From a virus (lineage: Duplodnaviria > Caudoviricetes): DNA of 63,718 bases. Positions 542-14,370 of this stretch are shown one piece after another. A model generated the notes under the pieces. It worked only from the letters and a program-made list of their open reading frames with translations, had not been told where the DNA came from and ran no database searches. Location of the stretch: positions 1-63,718 of IMG/VR virus record IMGVR_UViG_3300048855_000181. One strand, 5' to 3'. Position 1 is the stretch's first letter. The number at the start of each line of letters is the position of its first letter. Both the position numbers and the translations under genes were made by a program.

Positions 542-566
542 GGAACATGGGCTGGGTCCAAACGTT
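542..566 (+). promoter_or_regulatory. sigma-EcfG/RpoE2-type promoter
   Basis: GGAAC-N16-CGTT, ending 8 nt before ATG 575. Confidence 0.75.
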
Positions 567-574
567 CGGGCGAC

Positions 575-1333: not shown

Positions 1334-1349
1334 CCGGTCAGGAGCTGGC

Positions 1350-1832: not shown

Positions 1833-2012
1833 ATGAGGTTCAATCGTTACGAAACGAAGCAGCAAACAGACGGTAGGTGGTCTGTCTTTGATATTTCCAC
1901 GGGGTTTCCAATTCTGGTGAACGCCTTTTTTACCATCGACATGTCGCGACAGCGGGCAGACGATCTAGCCGATCTCCTCAACCGTTCAGATGCAATAAAT
2001 ATAGGACGATAG
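1833..2012 (+). CDS. small hypothetical protein (59 aa), below the ORF-track cutoff
   Basis: MRFNRYETKQQTDGRWSVFDISTGFPILVNAFFTIDMSRQRADDLADLLNRSD...; W.V.D..TG.P / A.DL.DLLN pattern. Confidence 0.6.
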   Translation: MRFNRYETKQQTDGRWSVFDISTGFPILVNAFFTIDMSRQRADDLADLLNRSDAINIGR

Positions 2013-2035
2013 AAACTGACATAGGCCCGAGGTAG

Positions 2036-2767
2036 TCAGTCCTTCGTTCCTCCTTCATTGGGACGAGCCATAATCCGCTCGTATTCTTTCTCGGCCATAC
2101 CGTAAAAGCCTTTCGCCTCGACGATCAAACCCGCTCTGTCGAGTACCTTAACATTGCCGCGTGAGGATCTGATCAACTGCTTGCCTTCGAGCAAGTGCAA
2201 CGTTTCCGTGACCCAGGGACGGCGCATAGCCAGCATGACCGCGATAAACTCGTGCGTTATGGAAAGGTCCGAACTGGTTGTGCGGTCATGCAGCATCAAC
2301 AGCCAGCGGGCGAGCCTTGTTTCAGCATTGGCAATGCCGTTGATCAAGGCCGTCGACGCAGCTTGGACAACCAACGTTTGGATGTGACGCAGCAGCTTCT
2401 TCTCTAGTGTGTCGCTTGTCTTGAGGGCCGTCAACAAAACGTGTGACGGGAGGACGTAGCCAGATCCAGCAATCTGGATGTAGGTTTCGAGCGGCGTACT
2501 GACTTCTCCCAAGACGAGCGTTGTTCCGGTCATCCCTTCCAACCCAGTCAAACAGACTTCAACGTCTTCCCCTTCGGGGCTTTGCGCTACCGTTGAGGCT
2601 ATGACTGATTCAGGGAAAACCACATAAGTTATCAGTTGATTAGCGCGTTCAATGTAATGTTTCAGCGGAAATTCACGGTGCTCAAGATGGGGCTTTAGCA
2701 AAGCAAAATCTTTAGGAACAAGACTGTTGAGCAGCCGGTTGGTAATCGTTGATTGTTGGGTATCCAT
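2036..2767 (-). CDS. Crp/Fnr family transcriptional regulator
   Basis: N-terminal NRLLNSL, cNMP-like domain, RLARWLL and C-terminal HTH THEFIAVMLAMRRPWVTETL. Confidence 0.9.
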   Translation of the reverse strand: MDTQQSTITNRLLNSLVPKDFALLKPHLEHREFPLKHYIERANQLITYVVFPESVIASTVAQSPEGEDVEVCLTGLEGMTGTTLVLGEVSTPLETYIQIAGSGYVLPSHVLLTALKTSDTLEKKLLRHIQTLVVQAASTALINGIANAETRLARWLLMLHDRTTSSDLSITHEFIAVMLAMRRPWVTETLHLLEGKQLIRSSRGNVKVLDRAGLIVEAKGFYGMAEKEYERIMARPNEGGTKD

Positions 2768-3196
2768 GTCATCTTTCCGCCCGGCTCATGAAAAGCGTCG
2801 GGTGCTTCAAGATCATGATGATCCTGGACATTCACAGTGACCGGAATACGTTATCGCCGCAGTTCGTGGGCAATATATTGCACTCAGAAATCGAGCCGCT
2901 TCCCGATCACACCATATATCAATTTGGCCATATCCCCTAATCGCTCAGCCCTCCGTCAGATTTCCGCACAAAGGGTAGTGACGGGTGGCTTCCGAGGGTT
3001 AGAGTTCATTGTTTTGCTAGATTCTCCTGCCAATTCTGAATGTGGTGTGGAATGTGGCACGGTGTGCCCACCGTTTTCATCGATCAAACTTCCGGTGTGA
3101 CAGGCCGATAGATTGCCCTTTTGGATCAACAAACGTTTCAAATTTCCGCGCGCCCTAACGGGCGGCAAGCGGCAAAAGTTGAAACTCATTTTGGCG

Positions 3197-3559
3197 TCAT
3201 GGCCGCCCTGATCCGACTCCGACCGGTCTCCCTCCGCCCAAGTCAGAAGGTGTCTCCAAATATTCCATGAACGTTTGGAGTACTTGCCGTTGGGCCGTTT
3301 TGCGTTTTGGAACGACTCCGTTTATTGCCCGTGTTGTAAATGGCCTCCGGCCGAGCTGAAAATTGAAATACCAATCACCATGTTGAGGGCCGCCGGATAG
3401 GCGGCAGACGCGGCCGATAACTATACCAGATGCTATCGCGAGGATGTCATCCGGTCTTTGTCTGTCATCGAAATGGACCGGCTTCCAAACAAAATCCATG
3501 GCTGACGGACTTTCGAGTTTCCAGCTTCGAGAAAGAGCTGCGTGCGTTGCTCGGCTCAT
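3197..3559 (-). CDS. hypothetical protein
   Basis: 120-aa ORF (alternative start near 3499) with an EcfG-type promoter upstream. Confidence 0.5.
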   Translation of the reverse strand: MSRATHAALSRSWKLESPSAMDFVWKPVHFDDRQRPDDILAIASGIVIGRVCRLSGGPQHGDWYFNFQLGRRPFTTRAINGVVPKRKTAQRQVLQTFMEYLETPSDLGGGRPVGVGSGRP

Positions 3560-3594
3560 TGGATTAACCAGAGAACCGTGCCCGATATGACCCT

Positions 3595-3619
3595 AATCTT
3601 GGTCCGCGCTAATAGTTCC
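3595..3619 (-). promoter_or_regulatory. sigma-EcfG-type promoter
   Basis: Minus strand GGAAC-N16-GATT. Confidence 0.5.
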
Positions 3620-3696
3620 CCTCAGCTCGGTTAATTTAGGACTGGTTACGCTTCAGGGCGCGCTGTTGTGTTTCAGCAAAATCCAGCGGCATCAAC

Positions 3697-3722
3697 GGAA
3701 CTTATACATCGTTGAACACGTT
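3697..3722 (+). promoter_or_regulatory. sigma-EcfG-type promoter
   Basis: GGAAC-N17-CGTT. Confidence 0.7.
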
Positions 3723-3762
3723 GCCCACGACGGTTCAATCTCAAATCGGGTGCTCTACATCC

Positions 3763-3864
3763 ATGCTCGCTTCAACGCTTCTACTATTTGACTGGCAAGC
3801 TCTCGTGGCTGCACTCGTTGTCATTATAGCGTTTCTTTGGATCCATTTTGCTTTCACGTCTTAA
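3763..3864 (+). CDS. small membrane peptide (33 aa)
   Basis: MLASTLLLFDWQALVAALVVIIAFLWIHFAFTS; one hydrophobic helix, downstream of an EcfG-type promoter. Confidence 0.45.
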   Translation: MLASTLLLFDWQALVAALVVIIAFLWIHFAFTS

Positions 3865-3964
3865 CAGCCATCTGCATGGTGGTGGCAGGTCGGTTTTGAC
3901 GAGCGCGGCGGGAATGGTATTGCAGAAAGCAAAAGGCGATGCTTAACGATTGACGAGGTTGGGA

Positions 3965-4381
3965 ATGGAAAAATGGTTCAATAGAGCCGCCACAGCGGTA
4001 GCAACAGCAGCAGGCAAACCCACCGCCTTTGTCGTCTGTGTGAGCTTGGTCTTGATTTGGGCCGTAAGTGGCCCTTTTTTTGGTTTCTCTGAAACATGGC
4101 AGCTGATCATAAACACCTCAACGACGATCATCACATTTTTGATGGTTTTCCTTATCCAAAACACGCAGAATCGCGACGGAGCGGCCATCCAGGCCAAGCT
4201 GGACGAACTCATTCGCTCTGGGGCCGGATTGAATAAATTCGTTGGGATCGAGAAGCTTACGCTAAAAGAGGTCGAGGCTTTCCGCGATCAATGCGAAGCG
4301 GCCGCTAAAAAAGCAGCATCAACAAAGACCAAAATCGCGAAGGAAGGCTCGCGCATGCGCCAAAAATCTAACGTCAGTTAA
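3965..4381 (+). CDS. low-affinity iron permease (Fet4-like) family protein
   Basis: Signature SGPFFGFSETWQLIINTSTTIITFLMVFLIQNTQNRD..AIQAKLDELI. Confidence 0.9.
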   Translation: MEKWFNRAATAVATAAGKPTAFVVCVSLVLIWAVSGPFFGFSETWQLIINTSTTIITFLMVFLIQNTQNRDGAAIQAKLDELIRSGAGLNKFVGIEKLTLKEVEAFRDQCEAAAKKAASTKTKIAKEGSRMRQKSNVS

Positions 4382-4449
4382 GCATTGTAGACTGACAATG
4401 GAATGCGGCGGCCGATCGCGACCACCGCTTCTACTGAAGGTTCGGCTAA

Positions 4450-4944
4450 TCAGGCTGCTTTAGCCAATGAGTTGAGACTTGCCTCAGCAAGCGCGGTCAA
4501 AGCCTGGTCGGTAGCTTCTTCCTCGTTCAAGGTGGTCACGAGAAGTGCCTTTGCATCCTTCAACCCAAGGTCCCCGGCCCAACGAGCCAAGGTGCCGTAA
4601 CGGGCTATTTCGTAATGTTCAACCGCCTGTGCAGCCGATGCAAGTCCAGCATCAATGGCAGGTTGCCCCTTGAAATCTTCCATTATCTCTTCGCCTTCAG
4701 CGATTATCCCCTCGATTGCGTCGCAGGTCTTACCCTGTGCCCGCTTGCCGAAAATCTCAAACACCTGCTGCAGGCGTTCAATGTGAACTTCAGTTTCCAT
4801 GCGATGCTTTTCAAAGGCCGCTTTGAGGTCCGGGTGGGATGCAGCCTTTTCCATCTTCGGCAAAGCTTTCAGGATTTTCCGTTCCGCGTAATAGATATCT
4901 TTCAGTGTTTCATGAAAAAGCGTTTCGAGTGTTTTCTCGACCAT
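4450..4944 (-). CDS. yciF: ferritin-like DUF892 protein (YciF-like)
   Basis: LKDIYYAE, H..ETE.HIERL, AQAVEHYEIARYGTL motifs; GAGGGA RBS. Confidence 0.9.
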   Translation of the reverse strand: MVEKTLETLFHETLKDIYYAERKILKALPKMEKAASHPDLKAAFEKHRMETEVHIERLQQVFEIFGKRAQGKTCDAIEGIIAEGEEIMEDFKGQPAIDAGLASAAQAVEHYEIARYGTLARWAGDLGLKDAKALLVTTLNEEEATDQALTALAEASLNSLAKAA

Positions 4945-4982
4945 GTCATGTCCCTCTATTGCTTGATTGCAATCAGTGGGAC

Positions 4983-5007
4983 AACGACAGCAAGTCAAAA
5001 GGGTTCC
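4983..5007 (-). promoter_or_regulatory. sigma-EcfG-type promoter of yciF
   Basis: Minus strand GGAAC-N16-CGTT. Confidence 0.8.
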
Positions 5008-5046
5008 GGACATGCGGAGAAGACCTGCCGTCAGACAGGGTTGATC

Positions 5047-5211
5047 CTATTCTTCACCCTCTTTTTGATCCAGGCGTTTCAGCAGATCGCTGAAGCGGTT
5101 ATCTATCGGGACGGTTTTGTAGCGCGTTTGCAGCGCTTCACGTAACTCGTTCCGCCGCCACCGCTCTTTCGAATCGTTGCGATTCATGGATTTGTCTTTT
5201 TTGTCATTCAT
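5047..5211 (-). CDS. NepR-like anti-sigma factor (54 aa)
   Basis: LREALQTRYKTVPIDNRFSDLLKRLD resembles the NepR core L...Y....P.P.RF.DLL..LD; has its own EcfG-type promoter. Confidence 0.55.
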   Translation of the reverse strand: MNDKKDKSMNRNDSKERWRRNELREALQTRYKTVPIDNRFSDLLKRLDQKEGEE

Positions 5212-5237
5212 TGGCTTCGCTCGATTTCGCGAGCACA

Positions 5238-5262
5238 AACCAGAACATCCACTGTTTGTTCC
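5238..5262 (-). promoter_or_regulatory. sigma-EcfG-type promoter of the NepR-like gene
   Basis: Minus strand GGAAC-N16-GGTT. Confidence 0.65.
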
Positions 5263-5283
5263 CCGCGCAATCTCAAAAACCAC

Positions 5284-5540
5284 TCATTCGGAAGCAACCT
5301 GCGGCGCCAAGATTCCCGCTTCGTCGGCAGCAAGCACAAAAGCCGCTCTTGCATCGTCCGCTGAGCTGTCCCCGGAAATTGCACGGCGCAACGTCTAGAG
5401 AGCACTTCTTTCTTCGCTCCGGTATCTCTTGGCCAATGTTCCAACATGAATGCCAGCGCGGCAGGCTCTGAACCCAACTTCCTATGCTCGTGACAGCGCG
5501 GGCCTATGACCAAAACATTCGCAAATTTGAGCTTATCCAT
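5284..5540 (-). pseudogene. DUF982-family gene, frameshifted near 5395-5410
   Basis: 5' frame MDKLKFANV...AALAFMLEHWP; 3' frame LRRAISGDSSADDARAAFVLAADEAGIL*; length 257 nt is not a multiple of 3. Confidence 0.7.
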
Positions 5541-5648
5541 ATCCCCCGAACCCGGGGTCAAGAAAGGTTGCTCTATTAGTGACTAACAAAGGTTTAGCTG
5601 CCGAAACACGGTCCAGAGCTTGCGCCTCATCACGCTCGTAGTTGCCGA

Positions 5649-5954
5649 CTATGCAAGTTCGGTCGACTCGGCAGTGGGAGTTTGATCGGGAACAAGAATC
5701 GCAATTATCTTTTTCAGTCGCGAGCGCCGGGCATATATACCGACTTCTTTGGCTGCGACGATGAATGCGGTCCGCGCGATTTCGGCCGGCACCTTACCAG
5801 AGATGGCGTCCAGACATTTCTGGCGCGCGTCTTCGAGGACTAGACTTTGATGAGGCGGCCATTTCAAAAGGATAAATTCGGTTGCCTCAGGCAATGACGT
5901 GATGAGTATGGTTGTTGCACTTTCGGGTATACGTACCCTTAGGGGTTTGAACAT
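5649..5954 (-). CDS. DUF982 domain protein
   Basis: EATEFILLKWP...ARQKCLDAISG...ARTAFIVAAKEVGI; AAGGAG RBS. Confidence 0.85.
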   Translation of the reverse strand: MFKPLRVRIPESATTILITSLPEATEFILLKWPPHQSLVLEDARQKCLDAISGKVPAEIARTAFIVAAKEVGIYARRSRLKKIIAILVPDQTPTAESTELA

Positions 5955-5982
5955 TCGAAGCTCCTTTGCTTGTTTGGCGCAA

Positions 5983-6008
5983 AACAACATACGCGGCTAA
6001 AGGTTCCG
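5983..6008 (-). promoter_or_regulatory. sigma-EcfG-type promoter
   Basis: Minus strand GGAAC-N17-TGTT. Confidence 0.6.
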
Positions 6009-6266
6009 GTGCGCCGCAGTTTCAGCGTTGCAATCATTGAAGCGGGGCAAGTTCATTCGCCAAAGTATACCCCGTCAAAGGCACGATTGTTCGTGGCACA
6101 AGAGCAACCACAGCGACTGCCCAGTGCTGTTGTCCGCTGGCGGACATAGTCTTGACGACAGCCTCGAAATGTTTTTTATTAACAGTGTTCCTGGCATTCT
6201 GATAGCACGCCAGTGATTGAGAGATGCCAAGTGCTCCCGCCTAACACCAGTGCGGGAGGGATTTTA

Positions 6267-6530
6267 ATGCCCCGTCAACTCAGGAAGCTCATCTATTCCA
6301 GTGAAGACTGGAATCTCATGCAGAGTGCGCTTTTTAAGGCCACCAAAAAACTGCACAGGGCCCAAGACCACGAAGATACGGATCGTCTGGCACGAAGGGT
6401 GATGACGCTGTTCGATCGAGGTCTCCGCGACATCGATGTCATTGCGCGCGCAGCCGCCAATCAGGAAATATTGATCGCCAGAATTGTATCGCTGCGCAGC
6501 TCGGAAAGAGCCGCCGATGCACAGCAATAA
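6267..6530 (+). CDS. hypothetical protein (87 aa)
   Basis: GGGAGG RBS; RLARRVM.LFD.G.RD pattern common in rhizobial small proteins. Confidence 0.7.
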   Translation: MPRQLRKLIYSSEDWNLMQSALFKATKKLHRAQDHEDTDRLARRVMTLFDRGLRDIDVIARAAANQEILIARIVSLRSSERAADAQQ

Positions 6531-6744
6531 CAACCAACGCCTCGATAGCAAACTTGAATGCGCAAAGTGCCAAACGATCTACCTCACTTTTACCCAAGAT
6601 ATGGCGCTGAGCACACCCATCGTTTGTAGCTCTTGTGGAGAATACATGGGTACGTGGGGTGATTTGGAGGCAGATTTTTACGCTCAAGGCGGGGGCGACG
6701 GCGTGTTTGAAATGCGCGATGGTCAGATCATACGAAAAGGATGA
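6517..6744 (+). CDS. small zinc-ribbon protein (75 aa)
   Basis: CAKC...CSSCG; overlaps the upstream stop. Confidence 0.7.
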   Translation: MHSNNNQRLDSKLECAKCQTIYLTFTQDMALSTPIVCSSCGEYMGTWGDLEADFYAQGGGDGVFEMRDGQIIRKG

Positions 6745-6748
6745 GGCC

Positions 6749-6871
6749 GTGCGGCTTGATTTTGATGATGGTCCAGATGGCCGACCAAGCGTCCTGTCGT
6801 TCTGCGTAGGTGGCATCTTAGTGGTTTCGATGCTTCTCATAGCAACGAGCTATGCTGGCTACTTGTGGTGA
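6749..6871 (+). CDS. small membrane protein (40 aa)
   Basis: GTG start after AGGATGAGG; MRLDFDDGPDGR plus a TM helix; paralogous to 6989-7138. Confidence 0.5.
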   Translation: MRLDFDDGPDGRPSVLSFCVGGILVVSMLLIATSYAGYLW

Positions 6872-6988
6872 AAGGACGCGGAGTTTTACAAAGCGAATGT
6901 TCTGCCATGGTAGATTGCCGCGAGTATGACACGCTGCAACGGCGTCTTTGAAATGCATGACGCCCAATCGCAGGCAAGGAGTGATCCC

Positions 6989-7138
6989 ATGCGAATACAT
7001 TTCGATGACGACCCCGAAGACGGGCGGAATGATCTGGCCCTTCATCATTACTTCGCGCTGTTCTGTATTGCTCTTGTCCTTGCCGGCGTAGCTTGTTGGA
7101 TGATGTGCTTAGAAAAAATGGAGCCGATAGTTTTTTAA
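6989..7138 (+). CDS. small membrane protein (49 aa)
   Basis: AAGGAG RBS; MRIHFDDDPEDGR plus a TM helix. Confidence 0.55.
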   Translation: MRIHFDDDPEDGRNDLALHHYFALFCIALVLAGVACWMMCLEKMEPIVF

Positions 7139-7276
7139 GAACCGAGCACTTTGCGGATGGTGCTGACGAGTTTCCGAGGCTAAGTACGATTACTGTTTTT
7201 TCTCTATTTTTGGCCCGTTGCCGCAACTGATGGAAGCCAGGCTTGAACGCTGCCAAGGCAAAGGGCGGGAGCTAAC

Positions 7277-7600
7277 ATGGCCATCGACTGGATATCAACT
7301 CTGGAAGAACAAGCAGAATTCGTCACACGCATAGCGGAGGATGTGACACTTACGCTTGAGCTCCCGCAGTTAAGTGATGTCCAAGTGTCCAGGCTCTTCC
7401 GGGTTGTCGAACAGGGAGCATCCACGTTTGACCGGATCATAGAGGAAATGGAACAAGAAGACGGTGTTGATGACGACCTTTTCGCAGCCGCAGCAGACAT
7501 TGCCGATACGTGGACGAACCTTTCAATTTCAACTGCAAACAAATTGCGCTCTCTGCAGGGGTTGTCGCCGATAGAGTTTCCTCCTGATAACGGCGGCTAA
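7277..7600 (+). CDS. hypothetical acidic protein (107 aa)
   Basis: GGGAG RBS, clean ORF. Confidence 0.7.
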   Translation: MAIDWISTLEEQAEFVTRIAEDVTLTLELPQLSDVQVSRLFRVVEQGASTFDRIIEEMEQEDGVDDDLFAAAADIADTWTNLSISTANKLRSLQGLSPIEFPPDNGG

Positions 7601-7624
7601 TGAAAATTGACTATTGCGCAGTGC

Positions 7625-7650
7625 GGAACTCGGCCCCGTCCTGCACCGTT
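7625..7650 (+). promoter_or_regulatory. sigma-EcfG-type promoter of the ligase (probably leaderless transcript)
   Basis: GGAAC-N17-CGTT ending 8 nt before ATG 7659. Confidence 0.8.
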
Positions 7651-7658
7651 CAGGGTGA

Positions 7659-8729
7659 ATGGCAAAAAGCTCGACACGCAAACTGAAGACAATCGGACTT
7701 CTGACCGATCTCAATGCACCACTCAAGAGCCAACCGACCAAGCCCCGTGAGAAGCGCCAACCGCAGCTGGCGCTGGATTCCATGCCAGCGCGTATTGAAC
7801 CTCAATTGGCGACGCTCGCCACAAAGGTGCCCAATGGGGGTGGCTGGGCCTACGAGGTCAAATGGGATGGCTATCGTCTTGCGGTACACGCCGAACCCGA
7901 CGAAATTCGTATTATTACGCGAGGTGGCCACGATTGGACACGCTATTTCCCTGCGATCGACGAAGCAGCAAGAGCCCTCGGTCCCGCGAGGTTCATTCTT
8001 GATGGAGAAGCTGTCGTCCTCGATGACAAGGGCGTGCCGAACTTTGGCCTGCTGCAACAGGAACTAGGCGGTCGGCGTGCAACCCGCGCGGCTAACAGGG
8101 CCGTGCTCTATGCCTTTGATCTGCTCTATTTGGATGGCCACGACCTAACCGGTCTTGAGCTGTCGTCGCGGCGACGTCTGCTCGAAACGTTCCTGGAAGG
8201 CCAGACAGGTGCGATTCGTCTGTCGGAAGAGATTGAGACTGATGACGCAGCAGCTTTGCTGCGTTCGGCCTGCTCCCACGGGCTTGAGGGGATTGTTGCC
8301 AAGCGCAAGGACAGGCCCTATCGGTCTGGCCGGTCGATCGACTGGCTGAAGATCAAATGCTCGAACAGCGAAAGCTTCGTTGTAATCGGCTACGAACCAT
8401 CCATCCTGGTTCGCGGTAGCATCGCAAGCCTGTTGCTCGCTGCGCGCAAGGACGACGGCTTGGTCTATGTCGGCCATGTCGGCACCGGCTTTTCGACAAA
8501 GCTTGCTCGAGACTTGAAGGTTCAACTGGATGGCATGCGCGTCGCCGTTCCGGCTGCCAGCGGCATCAAAGGGAAGAAATACGTGTTCGTGGAGCCAACC
8601 TTAGTTGTCGAGACAACCTACGGCGCCTGGACGCATGATGGAAAACTGCGCCATGCTTCGTTCAAAGGTTATCGCGAGGTGGCAGATCATTCGGAAGTCT
8701 ATCAACTAACAACATCGACGGAAGTCTAG
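7659..8729 (+). CDS. ligD: ATP-dependent DNA ligase, LigD-type ligase domain only
   Basis: Motif I EVKWDGYR, LDGEAV, AFDLL, EGIVAKR, WLKIK, and OB-fold LRHASFKG. Confidence 0.92.
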   Translation: MAKSSTRKLKTIGLLTDLNAPLKSQPTKPREKRQPQLALDSMPARIEPQLATLATKVPNGGGWAYEVKWDGYRLAVHAEPDEIRIITRGGHDWTRYFPAIDEAARALGPARFILDGEAVVLDDKGVPNFGLLQQELGGRRATRAANRAVLYAFDLLYLDGHDLTGLELSSRRRLLETFLEGQTGAIRLSEEIETDDAAALLRSACSHGLEGIVAKRKDRPYRSGRSIDWLKIKCSNSESFVVIGYEPSILVRGSIASLLLAARKDDGLVYVGHVGTGFSTKLARDLKVQLDGMRVAVPAASGIKGKKYVFVEPTLVVETTYGAWTHDGKLRHASFKGYREVADHSEVYQLTTSTEV

Positions 8730-8809
8730 GCAGAAGGTAAGGCCAAGCGAGGCGGCCCGGCACAGTCCGAAAGTCGATCTAACAAAAACAAAGTTTCCGG
8801 CCCGCAGTT

Positions 8810-8834
8810 GGAACGATATAGACGCGCCTTTGTT
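8810..8834 (+). promoter_or_regulatory. sigma-EcfG-type promoter of yciE
   Basis: GGAAC-N16-TGTT. Confidence 0.7.
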
Positions 8835-8861
8835 AGCGGTTTTTTGGATGGAGGAAGTTCA

Positions 8862-9371
8862 ATGACTGTTGCAGATAAAACCCTGAATGACTGGCTGCGT
8901 GATGCGCATGCTATGGAAGAACAAGCGCTTACTATGCTCAAGGGACAACAGAGCCGACTCGAAAACTATCCGGAGCTTCGCGAACGCATTAGCCAACATA
9001 TAGCCGAAACCGAACGGCACGCCCAATTGGTTCGAAGTTGTCTGGAACGTCGCAATACTGACACCTCAGGTATGAAGGATGCGGGTGCCAAGCTCACTGC
9101 CTTGGGGCAATCCTTGAGCGGAATATTCGTCAGCGATGAGGTCGTTAAGGGCTCATTGGCGAGCTATACTTTCGAGCATATGGAAATCGCCAGCTATACT
9201 ATGCTTGCTGAGGCAGCTAGCTTTGTCGGAGACACCCAGACCCAACAAGTCTGTGAAGAGATTTTGGCAGAAGAAGAGGCTATGGCGCAATGGCTTGCCG
9301 ATCACGCTGGCGAAGTGACGCGAACATTCCTGGAGCGGGAATCGACTGACGCAGAGACGGCAAAGCGATAG
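8862..9371 (+). CDS. yciE: ferritin-like DUF892 protein (YciE-like)
   Basis: WLRDAHAME.QA..ML..Q..RLENYPEL, DEVVKG, FEHMEIASY; GGAGG RBS. Confidence 0.92.
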   Translation: MTVADKTLNDWLRDAHAMEEQALTMLKGQQSRLENYPELRERISQHIAETERHAQLVRSCLERRNTDTSGMKDAGAKLTALGQSLSGIFVSDEVVKGSLASYTFEHMEIASYTMLAEAASFVGDTQTQQVCEEILAEEEAMAQWLADHAGEVTRTFLERESTDAETAKR

Positions 9372-9418
9372 GCTGCGCCCCACTATCGAGGACAGTGTCG
9401 AAATGTACACGATTGACG

Positions 9419-9525
9419 GGAACTAATGCCTCTAACAAGAGTTGGAGAGCGTTGTCCGGAAGGCATTGATAACCACTTGGCAACAGAGGCTCGGAGGTTT
9501 CATAGGCCGCCGAGCCTCACCACTT
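9419..9525 (+). ncRNA. candidate sRNA unit A (EcfG-type promoter plus two hairpins)
   Basis: GGAAC-N16-AGTT 9419-9443; GAGGCTCGG/CCGAGCCTC stem 9486-9518 followed by ACC. Confidence 0.55.
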
Positions 9526-9560
9526 CTGCAACAGAACTTCGTGCCATATCGTACACAGCC

Positions 9561-9676
9561 GGAACGATAAATTCGCGAGACGATTTAAACTTCGTCGGAG
9601 ACGTAGACATCTCCTGACAGAGGCTCGTCGCAATTAGCCCACCCCTGGTAACTTCTAGCGGCGGGCCTCACCTTTT
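9561..9676 (+). ncRNA. candidate sRNA unit B
   Basis: GGAAC-N16-GATT 9561-9585; GTCGGAGA/TCTCC-T-GAC hairpin; 12-bp stem GAGGCTCGTCGC/GCGGCGGGCCTC 9620-9669, then ACCTTTT. Confidence 0.55.
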
Positions 9677-9741
9677 GTTAACCATACAGGCGCACGCTTT
9701 GGGTGCTGACCATAGTGCCACTGGGTCGGCACCCGGCCTGC
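9662..9741 (+). repeat. ~80-nt direct repeat, copy 1 (copy 2 at 12396-12476)
   Basis: CGGGCCTCACCTTTTGTTAACCATACAGGCGCAC...GTGCTGACCATAGTGCC...GTCGGCACCCGGCCTGC is shared by both copies. Confidence 0.9.
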
Positions 9742-9900
9742 TTTCGTATTGCGTATCCGGCAGTCGGGACATCGCGTTCGCTCACGCCCTCGCAACGTGG
9801 ATGAGCCGGAACGTGGACGCCGACGGGCAAGTCGTTCCGGTGGCATAAGAGCAAGCCGCGGCGCAGAGCCTGATACTTTTGTCCACTGCCGGACTAACGT

Positions 9901-10094
9901 GGAACAAGAACTAAGCGCTCGTGTTTTGTGTCTGCTGATACCCCCGGTTCAGCAGACGGCCTGCCTTAGAAGGTGGCACTTCTTTTTCACGACAGGCCGT
10001 ATATTAGTCCGCCCGCCGGTGCTCGCGTTCTGGCAGGTCGGGCTATAGAGGCTCGTCGCGCTTTTGGCTGACAGCTGCGGCGAGCCTCGCCTTT
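9901..10094 (+). ncRNA. candidate sRNA unit C (four hairpins)
   Basis: GGAAC-N16-TGTT 9901-9925; stems TCTGCTGA/TCAGCAGA, ACGGCCTG/CAGGCCGT, TAGTCCG/CGGGCTA, and GAGGCTCGTCGC/GCGGCGAGCCTC 10048-10088. Confidence 0.55.
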
Positions 10095-10104
10095 GCTGGC
10101 GCAT

Positions 10105-10143
10105 AAACAAAAAAGCCCGCCAACCGGAGATCCGGCGGCGGGC
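10105..10143 (-). terminator. intrinsic terminator ending the late/lysis operon
   Basis: GCCCGCC...GGCGGGC stem followed by a U-tract on the minus strand. Confidence 0.8.
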
Positions 10144-10255
10144 AAATCTATGTCAAATAAGGGTGTAAGGGTTCCTATAGTCGAGACAAGCTTTCTACTC
10201 GGGCAGTGATGAATGATAGCCCCTTTCCCGGCAGCCCTGACCGGCAGGGCGATTG

Positions 10256-10624
10256 CTATCTGTGAAACAGTCTGGATATCCACTCGATCGAGCTGGCAAG
10301 GCTGATGCCTAGTGCCGTACAAGCGATCCCGACGACCCCTAAGCCACCCAGCCCCATCGCGCGCCATTGTTTCACCTGGTCTGTGACTTTTTTGCTGTCC
10401 TTGACCTGATCCGTAATGGCCGCGATGTCTGTCTTAATATCGCCAACCTCGTTGACGATCTCATCCATACGGCGGTGAACAACAGCGCGCTTCTCATCAG
10501 CTTCACGGTTCTCGGCAAAGGCACGCCGTTCCGACGCTTCCATGTCGCGCCGAAGCCCCTGCACTTCTGCAGTGAGCGCACCGATCGACTTGTAGATGTC
10601 ATTCAGACTGAGATCGACCATCAT
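10256..10624 (-). CDS. lysis-module coiled-coil protein with C-terminal TM helix (DUF1515-like)
   Basis: IGAL.AEV..LRRD...SE...R..VH.RMDE, then a TM helix; last gene of the lysis cassette. Confidence 0.7.
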   Translation of the reverse strand: MMVDLSLNDIYKSIGALTAEVQGLRRDMEASERRAFAENREADEKRAVVHRRMDEIVNEVGDIKTDIAAITDQVKDSKKVTDQVKQWRAMGLGGLGVVGIACTALGISLASSIEWISRLFHR

Positions 10625-10944
10625 TGCGCCTTTGCCCAATCGTCAATGAACCGATTGCATCGATCGATCTGTGCGTCGATGAGATCGGCATTGTAGAGCC
10701 AGCGATACTGTATGGAACGGTTCTTGTCCCCAACCTTGGGATTGACGCGAACCATATGCCTTTCGCACTCCGCCGGCTTTTTTGGAGCAACAGGCCGAGC
10801 TGCCAACTGACCTTGGATGGTGGCGGCCGCGAGGACTCGTTCAGTCTGTTTTTGCTCGGTGGTCACGCAACCACTTATCGTCATCAGCAGTCCAAGTGCT
10901 GCCGGGAGCAGTATCGCTGCGAATAGTCTCTTCAAGTTTTTCAT
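10621..10944 (-). CDS. putative o-spanin (Rz1-like lipoprotein)
   Basis: MKNLKRLFAAILLPAALGLLMTISG-C lipobox; overlaps the i-spanin 3' end in another frame. Confidence 0.65.
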   Translation of the reverse strand: MKNLKRLFAAILLPAALGLLMTISGCVTTEQKQTERVLAAATIQGQLAARPVAPKKPAECERHMVRVNPKVGDKNRSIQYRWLYNADLIDAQIDRCNRFIDDWAKAQ

Positions 10945-11284
10945 CTCTAACCTTCTTCGCTGCTGCTGCCACTGCTGCACGCTGTCGTGCCTGGTGCTGA
11001 AGTTGCGCCGCCCTGAGCGTTTCTTGCCTCTCACGGTCAAGCTGTGCCTGAAGGGCGGTCTTTTCGGATAGTTGGACGTATCCGGCCCGAGCTGCTGTCG
11101 CAGCCTTAGCCGCTTCGGTTGCCACCCTGCCCGTTGCAAGCTCGCCAATGACCGGGATGGAACCGATGTAAGGAATGTTCCGCACGAGAGGCACACCCTC
11201 ATAAATGCCAAGCATGAGGAGGAAAGACGCTGCAGCGCCAAGCGCACCATATGCGGCGGCTTTGATGCTTTCGAGGATACCCAT
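10841..11284 (-). CDS. putative i-spanin (Rz-like)
   Basis: N-terminal TM helix plus coiled coil, directly after the endolysin. Confidence 0.65.
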   Translation of the reverse strand: MGILESIKAAAYGALGAAASFLLMLGIYEGVPLVRNIPYIGSIPVIGELATGRVATEAAKAATAARAGYVQLSEKTALQAQLDRERQETLRAAQLQHQARQRAAVAAAAKKVRDEKLEETIRSDTAPGSTWTADDDKWLRDHRAKTD

Positions 11285-11287
11285 CAG

Positions 11288-11926
11288 CTAGAGCCCCGAA
11301 ACGCAGAGTTCAGCTTCGCCAAGGCGCTGCTTGTCACCCATCTCACGACGCAGCACCAGGCCATTGACGATGCGACCGCCAGCCTTGTTGAATGCCGTCT
11401 GCGCTTCGCAGGCTTGACGATATTTGCGGGCAGTGGTGAGCCTAGCCGCGGTCGATCTCTTCGCAGCCGAAACACCGAAGTTGTAGGCACCGGAGAGCAA
11501 CGATGCCTGAACCGATACAGGTGCCTCGACATAGCCTTTCACACCGTCAACCAGCGGAAGGAAATAGTCATTGATGACGCGGACCTTCAACATGGCCAGG
11601 CACTCGGCCGGCGTGAAGCTCATGCCGGCGGTAACAGGTTTGCCGTTGATCCGGGTCTCGCCGTAGCAGATATCCCAGATCTTGGCGAAGCCGTCCCAAT
11701 GGGACTGGAGAACAAGGCTTTCCCACGGAATGATCAGCTTGTTGACCGCCAGATCGACCGCAGGCGGGGTGATACCCTGATCGATCGCCGCATGAACGCT
11801 TGCCGGAGTGATCCGATCAGGGGAGAAAAACGCCAACCAGCCACTGGCAGAAGCGGATAAAATAACTGCGGCGATGGCGGCTTTTGCGCGGCCGCTTGAC
11901 CTGATCTTGTTGATTGGCATCTTCAT
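11288..11926 (-). CDS. endolysin, GH24 phage lysozyme with N-terminal hydrophobic (SAR/signal) segment
   Basis: E...D...WDICYGET catalytic region, SGAYNFG, GLVLRR. Confidence 0.88.
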   Translation of the reverse strand: MKMPINKIRSSGRAKAAIAAVILSASASGWLAFFSPDRITPASVHAAIDQGITPPAVDLAVNKLIIPWESLVLQSHWDGFAKIWDICYGETRINGKPVTAGMSFTPAECLAMLKVRVINDYFLPLVDGVKGYVEAPVSVQASLLSGAYNFGVSAAKRSTAARLTTARKYRQACEAQTAFNKAGGRIVNGLVLRREMGDKQRLGEAELCVSGL

Positions 11927-12146
11927 TACCTTTCAGATTTTCTTGAGCGATGAGGCGAGAAACGTAGGCAGCGGCGACCGCAAAGAGGGTCAGCACGGCA
12001 AAAAGTCGCTGCGGGATTGGAAGAAGGCCGTCGAGCAACGGAAGAGCGACCTCGATGCCGGACAGCAGACCGGCAAGCAGCATCAGGCGCATTGACCACG
12101 CTTTGCGCAGCACAGATCGCCAGTCGTCTATGAAACGCATGGTCAT
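11817..12146 (-). CDS. putative holin
   Basis: MRFIDDWRSVLRKAWSMRL plus two TM helices, upstream of the endolysin; AAGGA RBS. Confidence 0.7.
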   Translation of the reverse strand: MTMRFIDDWRSVLRKAWSMRLMLLAGLLSGIEVALPLLDGLLPIPQRLFAVLTLFAVAAAYVSRLIAQENLKGNEDANQQDQVKRPRKSRHRRSYFIRFCQWLVGVFLP

Positions 12147-12179
12147 TTCCTTGATTATGGATTGGGCGTATAATTGGGG

Positions 12180-12258
12180 TGCTGATCTAAGGATCGTCAG
12201 CAGAGGCTTGGCTGAAGGTAATCTTCCACGAGGCAATGAGGCCAAGCCTCACCGGTTG
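12180..12258 (+). ncRNA. candidate sRNA unit D
   Basis: TGCTGA/TCAGCA hairpin, then GAGGCTTGGCT/GGCCAAGCCTC 12203-12250 plus ACC; promoter unclear. Confidence 0.45.
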
Positions 12259-12278
12259 TTCTGGCAATGGATCAATCA

Positions 12279-12410
12279 GGAACAATATTCCGCTGTCGTG
12301 GTTCGTAGGCCTGTCGGAGAGCGGGAGACCCTCTTCCGCACGAGGCCCGGCGTGTCACCGCCCAAAAATCCCCGCGTCGGGTCTCACCGGTAGATCGGGC
12401 CTCACCTTTT
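12279..12410 (+). ncRNA. candidate sRNA unit E
   Basis: GGAAC-N16-GGTT 12279-12303; GTCGGAGAG hairpin as in unit B; GAGGCCCGGCGTG/CGCGTCGGGTCTC 12342-12385 plus ACC. Confidence 0.55.
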
Positions 12411-12476
12411 GTTAACCATACAGGCGCACCCTTTGAGTGCTGACCATAGTGCCCACTTCGTCGGCACCCGGCCTGC
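12396..12476 (+). repeat. ~80-nt direct repeat, copy 2
   Basis: Matches 9662-9741; differences concentrated in predicted loops. Confidence 0.9.
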
Positions 12477-12687
12477 CCTCGTTGTTGTGCGTATGTGAAC
12501 AGGCAGGTCGGGTACCTTAAAAAGGAGCGTGTCATGCGTAGCGGATTCACTCAATTTACAATCCTTGACTTGTTCACCATCATTTCTGGGATTGCATCGA
12601 TATCGACTCTCTGCTGGTTTTTCGTGTCGTGATACAGCACGCGCGTTGAGCCCCAAATGTGAGCAAGGCGCAGTCTATCGCAACTCC

Positions 12688-12712
12688 GGAACATTCTTTC
12701 CCTACCGCCGTT
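12688..12712 (+). promoter_or_regulatory. sigma-EcfG-type promoter inside the late operon (antisense)
   Basis: GGAAC-N16-CGTT. Confidence 0.75.
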
Positions 12713-12759
12713 AGGCGTCTGAAAAAAAGCTGTCACAACGGAGATAGAGGACAAGCCTA

Positions 12760-12873
12760 GTGAGAATTTTTGCAGTGGTTTCCTGCATACTCCTCATAAT
12801 CTTGACCGCGGCAGCTTACTTCACCGCCGTGACGATATTCGCGGAACCGCCTACAGAGCAGACGCAGCCGTAA
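12760..12873 (+). CDS. small membrane peptide (37 aa) moron
   Basis: GAGGA RBS, GTG start; MRIFAVVSCILLIILTAAAYFTAVTIFAEPPTEQTQP. Confidence 0.5.
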   Translation: MRIFAVVSCILLIILTAAAYFTAVTIFAEPPTEQTQP

Positions 12874-13228
12874 AGAACGCATCTACCTGCTCGACCGTGA
12901 AGCCGAGCCCGGCAAACCCCTGCTGAAGCATCTCGTCATCGCGCCGGAACGTGGCAGACTTGTTGAACGCGATCGGCACGAGAGGATCTTGCTGTGCCAC
13001 CCACGCGCTCACTTGATCGGTAAGTCCCGACAGCGCGAGTTGTAGGAAGAACTGCCTGCTGGAGATCACGGCAGGGATGATAGCCGCAGGTACGAACGGC
13101 ATATTCGCTTCCGCAACCACGCTTTCGAGCGTCTGCCCTTCCCGCCCGACGAACAGACCGTCGGTCGAATGAAGCCATTGGTTTGGCTCACCTTCAACGG
13201 GGCAAAAATCTTCAATTTTGTATGTCAT
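12851..13228 (-). CDS. tail fibre-associated/chaperone-like protein
   Basis: Follows the tail fibre; ISSRQF.LQL...F.R.D.....LG....QVDAFF.AA pattern of fibre-associated proteins. Confidence 0.65.
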   Translation of the reverse strand: MTYKIEDFCPVEGEPNQWLHSTDGLFVGREGQTLESVVAEANMPFVPAAIIPAVISSRQFFLQLALSGLTDQVSAWVAQQDPLVPIAFNKSATFRRDDEMLQQGFAGLGFTVEQVDAFFTAASAL

Positions 13229-13242
13229 TTTTGCTTGTCCCT

Positions 13243-14370
13243 TTAGGTCGCTGGTCGGGTGCGAAGAAAAAGGATGCCATAGGCAACCGTTCCACCCCGC
13301 ACGTTCTGGACCTGGTAACGGCCAAACGACGACTCATAGAAGACGTTTGTGAATCCTGCTTGGTTGGGGGTGCCAGGCGAAAACGAACCGCCGACATTGG
13401 CTATCATTTGCACTTGGCCGCCGCCACAAGCGAAGACCCCGACGCCTCCGTTATTGAAGTCATTGACTATGAGGAGACCCGACCCCACGCTATAAAGAAT
13501 ACCGCCGCCATTCGAGATTGCGACACTTCCGGCCGCGTCGAGCTGATAAACGTTATTGTTGGGTGGGGCCAATCCAAGCCCGCCCGTCATGGCAACCGAG
13601 CCATTAGGATTGATCGGCGTATATCCAAGGGTATTCTGCTTCGTGGCTATAGCCGCCGCTTGCGCTGTCGAAACGGGCTTGCTCGCGTCGCTAGTGTTAT
13701 CGACGTTGCCAAGACCAACATCGGCCTTGACCAAGGATAGAGCCGTCTTCTGTGCCGCCACATTGGCCGCGCCCGCCAAGACACGTCCCGCCGCCGTTAG
13801 ATCAAACAAAGCCGCCGTACTGGCGTCGGTAAAATACACGCCCTTGTTGGCCGCAATCGTCAATGCGAGCATCGAACGCGCCCACGCTTTGAAGTCGACA
13901 AGACCCATCGTTGTATCGTTGACGAAATATGGGATCTTGTCAGCCGCCGCCGTCAGCCCCAGAAACGACCGAGCCCAAGCCTTGAATTCAGCGAGCGCCA
14001 TGACCCCGGCAGCAGTGAAGTATGGCAGCTTATCTGCCGCGCCAGTGAGCGCCTGAAGCGCAGCCAGGCTGCCACTGGAAATCGATGACAGGAGTTCAGT
14101 CAGCGCCGCCATGAAGCGGGAGCCGACCGGCTGATAGCGAATATAATAAGCTGCGCCGGAAAGGTCCGGGCCACGCCAAGGGTCCAAGAGAGTGATGGAT
14201 GTGGTGCTGTTGACGGTGTCGATACGGCAAGGTGGGTAACCGCCGCTCGCAAACATATCGCCTTTGGAAATACTAGCAGCGTTCCAAAACATTCCGCCAG
14301 TCCCGGTCAGCGCCAACGATCCTTCTGTGATCGAGACCGTGCCAGCGACATAGTCTGGTTTGTCCACCAT
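13243..14370 (-). CDS. tail fibre protein
   Basis: N-terminal Y..GTVSI..GS..LTG; three ~31-aa AADKLPYF...WARS repeats; KADVGLGNVDNTSD..KPVSTAQ motif. Confidence 0.85.
   Translation of the reverse strand: MVDKPDYVAGTVSITEGSLALTGTGGMFWNAASISKGDMFASGGYPPCRIDTVNSTTSITLLDPWRGPDLSGAAYYIRYQPVGSRFMAALTELLSSISSGSLAALQALTGAADKLPYFTAAGVMALAEFKAWARSFLGLTAAADKIPYFVNDTTMGLVDFKAWARSMLALTIAANKGVYFTDASTAALFDLTAAGRVLAGAANVAAQKTALSLVKADVGLGNVDNTSDASKPVSTAQAAAIATKQNTLGYTPINPNGSVAMTGGLGLAPPNNNVYQLDAAGSVAISNGGGILYSVGSGLLIVNDFNNGGVGVFACGGGQVQMIANVGGSFSPGTPNQAGFTNVFYESSFGRYQVQNVRGGTVAYGILFLRTRPAT

Follow-up and report, generated by a model that had tools for sequence, protein, structure and literature searches.

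The stretch of DNA analyzed here (the window, all 63,718 nucleotides of a Caudoviricetes record) carries, on both sides of its lysis genes, five short non-coding units that end in similar hairpins. What are they: small RNA genes, leaders of the genes that follow, or marks left in DNA by a mobile element? On balance, we lean toward reading the five units as genes that belong to a so far undescribed, Phyllobacterium-centered family of small RNA modules, most of them driven by promoters of EcfG, the sigma factor for general stress.

The five units and their surroundings

The units share a common anatomy. Each has a 5' hairpin, a GAGGC...GCCUC helix (beginning at 9486, 9620, 10048, 12203 and 12342 in units A to E, respectively), and an RCC tail (Table 1). 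The pattern GAGGCYYG-N10-40-CRRGYCTCRCC matched five times in the window, always on the plus strand, compared to 0.01 matches expected from shuffled sequences. There were no reverse-strand matches and no control matches across the whole record. A first-pass annotation, made from the sequence alone, had described five such hairpins with stems of 9-13 bp; all were located where it had placed them, on the plus strand only, with uninterrupted stems of 9 (A), 12 (B), 13 (C), 11 (D), and 13 (E) bp. Its pairing of the 5' hairpins also held: GTCGGAGA is present at 9594-9601 and 12313-12320 (B and E), and TGCTGA/TCAGCA at 9933-9954 and 12180-12202 (C and D). Folding z-scores on the plus strand were -3.9, -4.2, -4.4, -1.8, and -2.1, and scores with model R1 were 39.8, 41.3, 37.9, 38.4, and 39.8 bits for A to E.

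Table 1. Features in and around the array of structured units.
Feature	Position	Strand	Promoter motif or upstream signal	Structure and remarks
ATP-dependent DNA ligase	7659-8729	+	GGAAC-N16-CGTT, 7625-7650	
DUF892	8808-9371	+	GGAAC-N16-TGTT, 8810-8834	true start probably later
Unit A	9419-9521	+	GGAAC-N16-AGTT, 9419-9443	5' hairpin GUUGUC..GGCAAC; helix 9486-9518; tail ACC(A); probable start near 9450
Unit B	9561-9679	+	GGAAC-N16-GATT, 9561-9585	5' hairpin GUCGGAGA..UCUCCUGAC; 12-bp helix 9620-9669, loop CCCACCCC; tail ACC, then UUUUGUU; probable start near 9593
Module F	9673-9768	+		conserved, ~96 nt, starting at the U-run that follows unit B; two helices predicted, GCUGACC..GGUCGGC and CCGGCCUGC..GGCAGUCGGG
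Unit C	9901-10095	+	GGAAC-N16-TGTT, 9901-9925	5' hairpin UGCUGA..UCAGCA 9933-9954, then diverged F-like body (repeat family D2); helix 10048-10088; tail GCC, then UUUG
Late operon end	10117-12146	-		
Intrinsic terminator	10138-10117	-		
DUF1515	10256-10639	-		
Two overlapping ORFs	10621-11250, 10841-11284	-		no family match
Endolysin	11288-11926	-		
Holin	11926-12146	-		
Unit D	12169-12253	+	TATAAT, 12169-12174	5' hairpin UGCUGA..UCAGCA 12180-12202; 11-bp helix 12203-12250, loop motif UAAUCUUCCA; tail ACC
Unit E	12279-12388	+	GGAAC-N16-GGTT, 12279-12303	5' hairpin GUCGGAGAG..; 13-bp helix 12342-12385, loop CACCGCCC..UCCCC; tail ACC
Orphan helix 3' arm and tail	12396-12406	+		CGGGCCUCACC, then module G
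Module G	12407-12512	+		repeats F, with 97% identity in the first 58 nt
32-aa hydrophobic peptide ORF	12534-12632	+	AAGGAG 8 nt upstream	directly behind module G
37-aa hydrophobic peptide ORF	12760-12873	+	perfect GGAAC-N16-CGTT, 12688-12712	

Unit A follows the DUF892 and ATP-dependent ligase genes in a host-like stress island; the order ligase-DUF892-unit A recurs in genome G151, where homology with the window's initial 20 kb stops at unit A. As had been proposed, units D and E lie just upstream of holin and are antisense, over their full length, to the late transcript; the tail-fibre genes are on their other side, and the TATAAT of D stands back to back with the start of holin. The description of the array as prophage-borne was only partly correct: unit A is in the host-like island and the GAGGC family is chromosomal and genus-wide in Phyllobacterium. 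Downstream, A runs into the promoter of B, C into the convergent late terminator, and D into the promoter of E. Within 9000-13000, two soil metatranscriptome contigs cover only 9478-9693 (identical) and 9697-9763, a weak hint of possible expression, weak because the library could contain contaminating DNA.

A module of ~96-106 nt, missed in the first-pass annotation, is repeated as F and G. We found 11 distinct copies of F from 10 sources, each behind a hairpin-ACC (once behind a plain terminator hairpin). The start of F is exact, right behind ...CCUCACC, and the flanks diverge after GGCAGGUCGGG. No compensatory changes were seen in the F helices. The two small plus-strand ORFs behind G had also been missed. 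The 32-aa peptide had no Pfam match and is conserved, with one residue changed, in a related locus (L129).

A Phyllobacterium family with signs of selection as RNA

The family is concentrated in one genus. In 31 Phyllobacterium genomes the motif was found 101 times, compared to 5 for the control, and was present in 28 of them, with 0-9 pattern matches per genome; model R1 gave 12 copies in one genome. Among 150 other genomes of the surrounding GTDB family, only seven had R1 matches. A comparison with Rfam had been proposed, the rhizobial alpha-r families included, and the units matched none of its 4227 models: the window had no match at the gathering threshold (three unrelated weak ones had E values of 2.8-6.6), and scans of 7 and 12 related loci gave no match on any unit, even at E up to 10. 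None of the candidates, among them ar7, ar9, ar14, ar15, ar35, ar45, C4, and suhB, reached its family gathering threshold. An ar35-like match and an Atu_At1 match in neighboring loci fall away from the units. Our literature search listed no paper on sRNAs of Phyllobacterium.

The helix is conserved by pairing rather than by sequence alone, and on one strand. Family statistics are based on 81 distinct members; these were aligned from the pattern search, whose criteria in part impose pairs 1-8 and the RCC tail. Pairs 9, 10, and 11, which the pattern did not select, were paired in 91%, 83%, and 78% of members, compared to 62%, 74%, and 52% in the shuffled comparison, and pairing dropped to background at pairs 12-13, indicating a helix of ~11 bp. 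The helix covariation score was 0.396 versus 0.196, and none of 500 shuffles reached 0.396. Pair 6 is U-G in 29 of the 81 members, G-U pairs fit the plus strand only, and model R1 gave 38-41 bits on the plus strand and 14-17 on the minus strand. Covariation, U-G counts, and strand asymmetry all agree with the earlier claim of compensatory changes and plus-strand G-U pairs. For example, three homologues of unit A have an A-U in place of G-C at pair 9 and keep GGAAC and AGTT.

Could the hairpins be terminator relics or REP-like repeats with no function of their own? U-runs do follow a 3-nt spacer in B and C (they are absent in A, D, and E), and a U-rich tail comes after RCC in 19 of the 81 members, but only in those. 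The ACC spacer separates the helix from any U-run, and the terminator scan called none of the five units an intrinsic terminator. The low copy number (~3-9 per genome), the fixed distance to a promoter, the conserved adjoining 5' hairpin, and the loop motifs conserved within each type also argue against relics, and we consider this explanation extremely improbable and already largely refuted. A REP-like or other high-copy intergenic repeat would have tens to hundreds of copies and no linked promoter, unlike the few matches per genome and the linked promoters seen here.

The loops are biased in composition and conserved by type. Loops across the 81 members are 35% C, with CCCC in 29 members versus GGGG in five. 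The loops had been thought unrelated to one another; this was incorrect for B and E, which are related and both contain CCNCCC/CCCC tracts, and the loops of A, C, and D are not C-rich. Homologues were found for B (four loci), D (two, and L129, in which the 5' stem is kept and the loop differs), and E (five). Each type retains its own loop motif across genomes, which suits pairing in trans. Duplex predictions against neighboring mRNAs gave nothing robust.

The family is associated with EcfG-type promoters. The consensus for sigma-EcfG is GGAAC-N16/17-CGTT. By motif, units A, B, C, and E each have a putative, near-consensus promoter of this type directly upstream, with -10 elements (AGTT, GATT, TGTT, and GGTT) that differ from CGTT; D has no GGAAC, and a sigma-70 scan gave no -35 for its TATAAT. 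The loose motif GGAAC-N16/17-NNTT occurs 28 times in the window versus 14.2 expected, and therefore one site alone is little proof. The support comes from family-wide statistics: 31 of the 81 members have GGAAC-N16/17-NGTT upstream, with its end 27-44 nt before the hairpin, compared to a background of 0.8% per 56-nt window (302 kb). Of 79 look-alike hairpins taken from other viral contigs, none has such a promoter. CGTT itself is the -10 in only three of these 31; among homologues GGAAC and RGTT are conserved and the spacer sequence varies. The motif is missing in 50 of the 81 members (~60%), and some members have sigma-70-like TTGAC boxes. NepR was found in all four Phyllobacterium genomes tested. 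The link to EcfG-type promoters, proposed from the four window sites, is strong at the level of the family. Of the statement that four units start just behind their own promoters, the motif is there at all four sites, but in C a stretch of 147 nt that includes two more helices separates the promoter from the GAGGC hairpin downstream.

ProQ, suggested earlier as a partner, does not fit the distribution of the family. ProQ/FinO (PF04352) is in none of the 31 Phyllobacterium genomes and therefore cannot be the general partner. In the GTDB-family sample it occurs in nine of 151 genomes, and all eight RNA-positive genomes lack it. Only this prophage carries one (55787-56161).

Leaders, integration sites, and processing signals

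Some members precede genes. If the modules were cis-acting 5' leaders or attenuators and not trans-acting sRNAs, the helix and an optional U-run would control the share of transcription or translation that continues into a small gene downstream. Possible cargo would be DUF3606 genes or membrane peptides of 31-37 aa, which might resemble type I toxins, and the copies in the window would be leaders whose cargo was swapped or lost. DUF3606 ORFs are downstream of units in two loci in which Pfam was scanned, and similar ORF starts in two more could be a DUF3606-like arrangement. A conserved small hydrophobic peptide follows B-type units in two of the B homologues, and a 31-aa peptide follows in another locus. 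Within the window, the 32-aa ORF that E and G lead into has a strong Shine-Dalgarno (SD) sequence, and a further EcfG-type promoter precedes the 37-aa ORF. However, an SD and ORF are within 90 nt downstream in only nine of the 81 members; A, C, and D lead into other signals, as described above; two loci contain ORF-free tandem arrays of 2-4 units; and the loop motifs of each type are kept between genomes. We therefore regard leaders as a doubtful explanation for the family as a whole, and for the nine members a cis-acting role is at least as well grounded. Several paralogues are leaders of genes for DUF3606 or small hydrophobic peptides, so that free-standing sRNAs do not make up the whole family. 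Of the earlier picture of an sRNA array with a constant scaffold and variable loops, the RNA-level family, constant helix, and type-specific loops stand.

The repeats might instead act mainly as DNA, as sites at which prophages and islands integrate or recombine, with the RNA-like features secondary and the helix arm and F/G module marking cassette boundaries. Arrays are found at the borders of mobile elements: that of the window is at the left edge of the prophage, whose right end carries an integrase-like gene, and in another locus (L274) the order is ligase, four units, integrase. The exact start of F, the orphan 3' arm, the variable cargo in the tail-to-holin slot of related prophages, and the recombination of array pieces in many combinations are all consistent with such joints. 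On the other hand, a P. trifolii prophage contig had no second copy of the proposed core, the 'empty-site' junction was absent at the other prophage ends searched, and the G-U pairs, fixed promoter distance, and strand bias point to RNA-level selection. We consider a mainly DNA-level role quite improbable. It would be compatible with RNA genes, because phages often integrate into small RNA genes.

The helix and tail may resemble part of a tRNA. As a mimic of the acceptor/T-arm minihelix they would be a processing signal: RNase P would cut just 5' of G+1, exonucleases would trim to the tail, and arrays or leaders would be diced into hairpin RNAs. According to PMC4919922, bacterial RNase P RNA binds the 3' RCCA by base pairing with the GGU of its L15, and RNase P cleaves hairpin model substrates, pre-4.5S RNA, and the precursor of phage P1/P7 C4 RNA. 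The helix is ~11 bp versus 12 bp for the acceptor plus T stem, and the 5' hairpin is within 0-4 nt of it. G+1 and a single-stranded RCC are in all five units; for the wider family this is partly circular, since the pattern required both (A in 63 and G in 18 before CC). With the tail constraint dropped (~200 hairpins), ACC was still commonest, and ACU, AUU, AUG, and ACA also occurred. These other tails argue against RNase P, as do the base at N-1 (A in 41 of the 81 members, not the preferred U), the base after CC (U in 43, A in 12), and the fixed GAGGC sequence, which RNase P would not need. We judge processing by RNase P to be improbable, and we assign a similarly small chance to the broader idea that RNase P dices EcfG-driven arrays of tRNA mimics whose ends are integrase targets. 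If true, this would be a stress-switched, phage-spread 'polycistronic sRNA' system, and tRNA-like ends would explain both the arrays at prophage and island borders and the shuffling of cassettes.

Proposed function and comparison with known systems

We return to the reading that we favor, a family of small RNA modules. A module would consist of a promoter, a short 5' hairpin, the ~11 bp helix 5'-GAGGCYCG...CGRGCCUC-3', and an unpaired tail of A/G-C-C. Activation of the PhyR-NepR-EcfG cascade in a lysogen would lead to transcription of A, B, C, and E from their EcfG-type promoters and of D from its TATAAT-type promoter, giving products of perhaps ~70-85 nt (~160 nt for C). The constant helix would provide stability, and the 3' end would form by weak termination at the U-run (B and C) or by processing. 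The exposed loops (C-rich in B and E, UCUUCC in D) may pair with G-rich or SD regions of mRNAs, much as in GsrN. In some paralogues the module would be the 5' leader of a DUF3606 or small membrane-peptide gene, and E plus G may lead into the 32-aa ORF.

To our knowledge, few sRNAs under the alphaproteobacterial general stress sigma factor have been studied, GsrN being the main example. The family would add ~3-12 paralogues per genome in one genus, with a constant 3' module in common and with several loop 'specificities' among them. Some copies ride on a prophage between tail and lysis genes. It would be a tractable case for learning in what ways riboregulators are taken up and diversified by stress regulons, how a prophage connects to the stress circuit of its host, and what recognizes a sequence-fixed helix with an ACC tail.

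The modules resemble several known systems in part. They share with leaders of type I toxins and small membrane peptides the 31-37 aa hydrophobic ORFs directly downstream of structured modules, but most units have no ORF, and duplex predictions identified no antisense or complementary antitoxin. The C4 antisense RNA of P1/P7 is a small RNA carried by phages; like the units it has a constant scaffold, and its specificity resides in the loops. C4 and pre-4.5S RNA are hairpins that RNase P accepts as substrates, and their 3' tails are of the RCC(A) type. In contrast to C4, the units have their own promoters, mostly no A after the tail, and no Rfam C4 match.

Most GsrN homologues adjoin the ecfG-nepR-phyR locus. 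No family member is beside the NepR locus, as model R1 at E up to 1 had no match in four 3-kb NepR loci. According to PMC5869019, the sRNA GsrN of Caulobacter depends on sigma-T/EcfG and works through an exposed C-rich loop, its BLASTn matches are reported within Caulobacteraceae only, and EcfG-regulated sRNAs are predicted to be widespread in Alphaproteobacteria. The units are like GsrN in having a promoter (here a motif) for the general stress ECF sigma factor and a small structured RNA, and the C-rich loops of B and E may be exposed for target pairing in a similar way. This likeness does not imply homology. The units are multi-copy and often arrayed, their C-rich tracts are mostly in the second hairpin, and they share a GAGGC helix and an ACC tail for which no counterpart in GsrN is described. 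The rhizobial Rfam families (such as ar14, ar15/AbcR, and ar35), which differ in that the units match no Rfam model, are likewise multi-copy and lineage-restricted in Rhizobiales, and some rhizobial multi-copy sRNAs carry C-rich anti-SD loops and occur in tandem.

Five hairpin units in and beside the prophage

The endolysin of the provirus shares 95-96% identity with prophage genes of Phyllobacterium sp. 1468 and of P. trifolii CECT 7015, and on that basis we assign the host to Phyllobacterium. The provirus boundary is probably near 9.5-10.1 kb. In its left arm (1-9400), the "provirus" resembles a host general-stress island; GGAAC-N16-CGTT or -TGTT lies ahead of several of the stress genes there (e.g., at 7625 and 8810), and the first 10 kb contains 16 of the 28 GGAAC-N16/17-NNTT sites in the window. 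A tRNA scan of the window found no tRNA.

Positions of features in the window
Feature	Position	Strand	Remarks
Host-like stress genes	1 to ~9,400		Crp-like regulator, low-affinity iron permease, two DUF892, DUF982, ATP-dependent DNA ligase
Units A, B, C, D, E (helices)	9486, 9620, 10048, 12203, 12342	+	
Modules F, G	9673-9768, 12407-12512		two copies of one element
Prophage	~10.1 kb to window end		
Late operon		-	terminase, portal, capsid, tape measure, tail fibre (13243-14370), holin (11926-12146), endolysin, DUF1515
Terminator ending late operon	10138-10117	-	
Orphan 3' arm of helix	12396-12406		
32-aa hydrophobic peptide ORF	12534-12632	+	strong SD
37-aa hydrophobic peptide ORF	12760-12873	+	perfect GGAAC-N16-CGTT at 12688 upstream
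Right part of prophage			replication genes, CI-like repressor, ProQ/FinO gene (55787-56161), RecT
Prophage-borne DNA polymerase III beta clamp, DnaB-type helicase, MT-A70 methyltransferase	41785-42948, 48421-50133, 50791-51372		
Integrase-like gene	right edge of window		

The first-pass annotation had described five hairpins with stems of 9-13 bp, four GGAAC-N16/17-NNTT sites and 5' hairpins shared between units, and we found all of these. There were five matches to the hairpin pattern, all on the plus strand, versus 0.01 expected; neither the minus strand nor the reversed control gave a match across the whole 63,718-base record. A covariance model of the helix family (R1) found the five units alone in the window, with 38-41 bits on the plus strand versus 14-17 bits on the minus strand. 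The folding z-scores of the plus strand were -3.9 (A), -4.2 (B), -4.4 (C), -1.8 (D), and -2.1 (E). In unit C, which is composite, a diverged F-like body separates the promoter and 5' hairpin from the GAGGC helix. Unit D lacks GGAAC and has a TATAAT (12169-12174) back to back with the start of the holin gene.

The orphan helix arm, modules F and G, and two small ORFs between the tail-fibre genes and holin had been overlooked. The module (about 96-106 nt) starts in the window exactly after the ...CCUCACC tail. Two helices are predicted in it. An alignment of seven of its nine copies with the core of unit C had 25 predicted pairs but showed no compensatory changes, and we therefore regard the structure as putative. 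Across genomes the module (AACCAUACAGGCGCAC...GGCAGGUCGGG) is 82-97% identical, with other copies in loci L133, L135, L192, L201, L202, L205, L220, and L238; the copies always begin at the U-run after a hairpin, and the flanks diverge immediately beyond the module. Neither peptide matched Pfam above the cut-off. Possible roles are those of small stress proteins of the membrane or of type I toxin-like peptides.

A helix family in Phyllobacterium

The five units belong to a family of such hairpins. A slightly relaxed pattern gave 101 matches in 28 of 31 Phyllobacterium genomes, versus five for the reversed control, and in a sample of 121 genomes of the surrounding GTDB family a stricter pattern gave 31 matches, versus 19 for the control. 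For R1 we started from the 74 distinct hairpins whose stems reach at least 9 bp, left out 19 near-identical orthologues and used the other 55. The model found 12 copies in P. trifolii (G002) and matches in only seven of 150 other genomes of the GTDB-family sample. The 101-match scan, the R1 genome search, and the free-tail scans and ProQ searches described below include one unpublished genome (G081), on which no claim rests.

The helix was conserved as a paired structure. We gathered 92 distinct pattern matches and took as members the 81 with at least eight uninterrupted pairs. Pairs 1-8 are partly fixed by the search pattern; the unselected pairs 9, 10, and 11 were formed in 91%, 83%, and 78% of members versus 62%, 74%, and 52% after shuffling. 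Pairing at positions 12-13 was at background level, and therefore the helix is about 11 bp. In the 55-sequence alignment there were two-sided changes at 7 of 12 pairs, the covariation score was 0.396 versus 0.196 (none of 500 shuffles reached 0.396), and slid controls paired in only 32-45% of cells. At pair 9, A-type homologues have A-U in place of G-C. G-U pairs, which had been said to fit the plus strand, were indeed frequent (e.g., 29 of 81 members have U-G at pair 6) and would be C-A mismatches on the opposite strand. With the tail left free, there were about 200 such hairpins in the genus (414 strand matches versus about 64 in the control). The commonest tail among the matches listed was ACC, followed by ACU, GCC, and others, an approximate ranking that indicates a variable tail.

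The family was not found among the RNAs of Rfam. The first-pass annotation had suggested this comparison; no Rfam family matched the units, whether those of the window or those of 19 related loci. Comparison of 9380-10260 and 12130-12860 with the phage collection by blastn gave no match. Near chromosomal family members there are matches to known rhizobial sRNAs, namely to Atu_At1 (96 bits) and, below the gathering threshold, to an ar35-like RNA (39 bits), at 163-269 of L171 and 2006-2105 of L187.

A pattern scan of IMG/VR gave at least 121 loci, with 79 distinct hairpins among the matches listed. As a negative control, none of these 79 had an EcfG-type promoter at the right distance, and the 20 loci that were searched against Rfam gave no match. 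We treated these look-alikes as unrelated or chance hairpins, though some recur up to 12 times. Two other elements stand out in L022, L028, L030, and about 20 further IMG/VR loci. One, a two-hairpin element, CCGUCUCGCAGCGACGG..AGAGGCCUGGCGCCUGCCUCC..GGGCCUCGCC, has an identical hairpin in up to 12 viral contigs. The second, GCCGCC..GGCGGCC-AGAGGCUCGUUGC..., recurs six times, and L028 carries both. Neither element has an EcfG promoter, nor an Rfam match among the 20 loci tested.

Promoters, loops and downstream genes

Many family members have a promoter motif of the type that the sigma factor for general stress recognizes. In 31 of 81 members, GGAAC-N16/17-NGTT ended 27-44 nt 5' of the helix. 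The background, 302 kb from the same loci with the true sites included, had 45 occurrences of the motif, or 0.8% per 56-nt window. The -10 elements of the 31 were AGTT (14), GGTT (9), TGTT (5), and CGTT (3). In homologues of A, B, and E only the spacer sequence varies, between a retained GGAAC and RGTT, and other members have TTGAC-type boxes such as the recurrent ATGTGATTTGAC. NepR was present in four of four Phyllobacterium genomes tested, and therefore the PhyR-NepR-EcfG system exists in the host.

For transcription of the A-B-F stretch we have no more than a hint. In one soil metatranscriptome, a 216-nt contig is identical to 9478-9693, and a 162-nt contig matches 9697-9763 and then runs into sequence unlike the window. 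Contigs from an RNA library may be contaminating DNA, and these give no start, end or strand. The rest of the compared stretch, outside 9478-9763, had no metatranscriptome cover, which says nothing about expression.

The loops are C-rich and specific to each type. They are 35% C, with CCCC in 29 of 81 members and GGGG in five, and each type keeps its motif across genomes: CACCCRCCC...CCCC in types B and E, UAUUCUUCC or UUCCUCC in type D, and GUUUCAUAGG in type A. We predicted duplexes between nine loops and seven neighbouring mRNA regions (59 pairs after removing four trivially antisense ones). Three of the 59 had z below -2, and one alone reached -5.1. In that lead, the 5'-hairpin loop of unit E (12321-12332) would pair with the 37-aa ORF over its first codons (12760-12790), at a predicted -19 kcal/mol.

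We lean toward the view that the units are stress-switched small RNA modules. EcfG-type promoters would fire under general stress, and unit D would be transcribed from its TATAAT-type promoter. The constant helix would stabilise the RNA and set its 3' end, and the type-specific loops would bind mRNAs by pairing at their G-rich or SD regions, in the manner of GsrN.

The main rival is that the units are cis-acting leaders or attenuators of small downstream genes, which we consider rather unlikely as a general account, even with some paralogues demonstrably in that layout. Units lie 5' of DUF3606 ORFs in L141 and L138; L269 and L270 have similar downstream ORF starts (the Pfam scan covered L141 and L138). 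In L268 and L203, the ORF 3' of the B-type unit encodes a small hydrophobic peptide that is conserved, and E plus G with the 32-aa ORF is possibly a leader layout too. When the 81 members were roughly classed by what comes after the tail, 18 had a U-run (one of these also with an ORF), nine had an SD and ORF within 90 nt, seven had another EcfG promoter within 110 nt, and 48 had none of these.

Mosaicism, the fixed helix and known systems

The modules are mosaic and often tandem. In genome G127 a ligase gene, four units within 1.3 kb, a DUF1254/1214 protein gene and an integrase gene follow in that order, and in G151 the window's order of ligase-DUF892-unit A recurs, but with the B-type units 15 kb off. 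Among five related proviruses found via the endolysin, L129 alone has units D, E, and G. Only the window provirus and L129 have D, E, G, and the peptides in the slot between tail fibre and holin; in related prophages other DNA is found there. A joint for integration or recombination at the DNA level would fit the element borders and this mosaicism, but both tests for a repeated core were negative: the empty-site junction (up to three mismatches) had no match in G002, G001, or three provirus records, and the proposed 15-nt att core occurred just once on the P. trifolii prophage contig. We regard such a joint as improbable.

Neither the small RNA reading nor the leader reading accounts for the helix's fixed sequence and its ACC tail. 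The boldest reading, that helix and tail form a tRNA-like minihelix cut by RNase P, seems to us improbable. RNase P is known to act on hairpins that end in a 3' RCC(A) tail, on pre-4.5S RNA and on the P1/P7 C4 precursor (PMC4919922), but neither the N-1 base nor the base that follows CC fits the tRNA pattern well. A local tRNA-Cys gene encodes its own CCA.

The phage ProQ, which had been put forward as a partner, is rejected at the level of the family: it was found in none of 31 Phyllobacterium genomes and none of eight RNA-positive genomes of the wider sample. Because those 31 genomes have none, the prophage-encoded ProQ/FinO-domain protein is a candidate phage-specific RNA chaperone.

Literature searches returned GsrN and general RpoE2/EcfG work (PMC5869019 and PMC3616915), and nothing on sRNAs of Phyllobacterium. 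The supplementary tables of PMC3616915 contain RpoE2-dependent intergenic transcripts and might include a related Sinorhizobium RNA. Returning to the units as stress-switched small RNAs, PMC5869019 shows pairing of the GsrN loop with mRNA targets in Caulobacter; for the units here, such pairing is a proposal by analogy. We conclude that the units are an undescribed RNA family within a known class, probably that of sigma-factor-controlled riboregulators, with unusual features in the sequence-fixed helix with its ACC tail, the tandem arrays, the probable use both as sRNA and as leader, and the presence of copies in a prophage.
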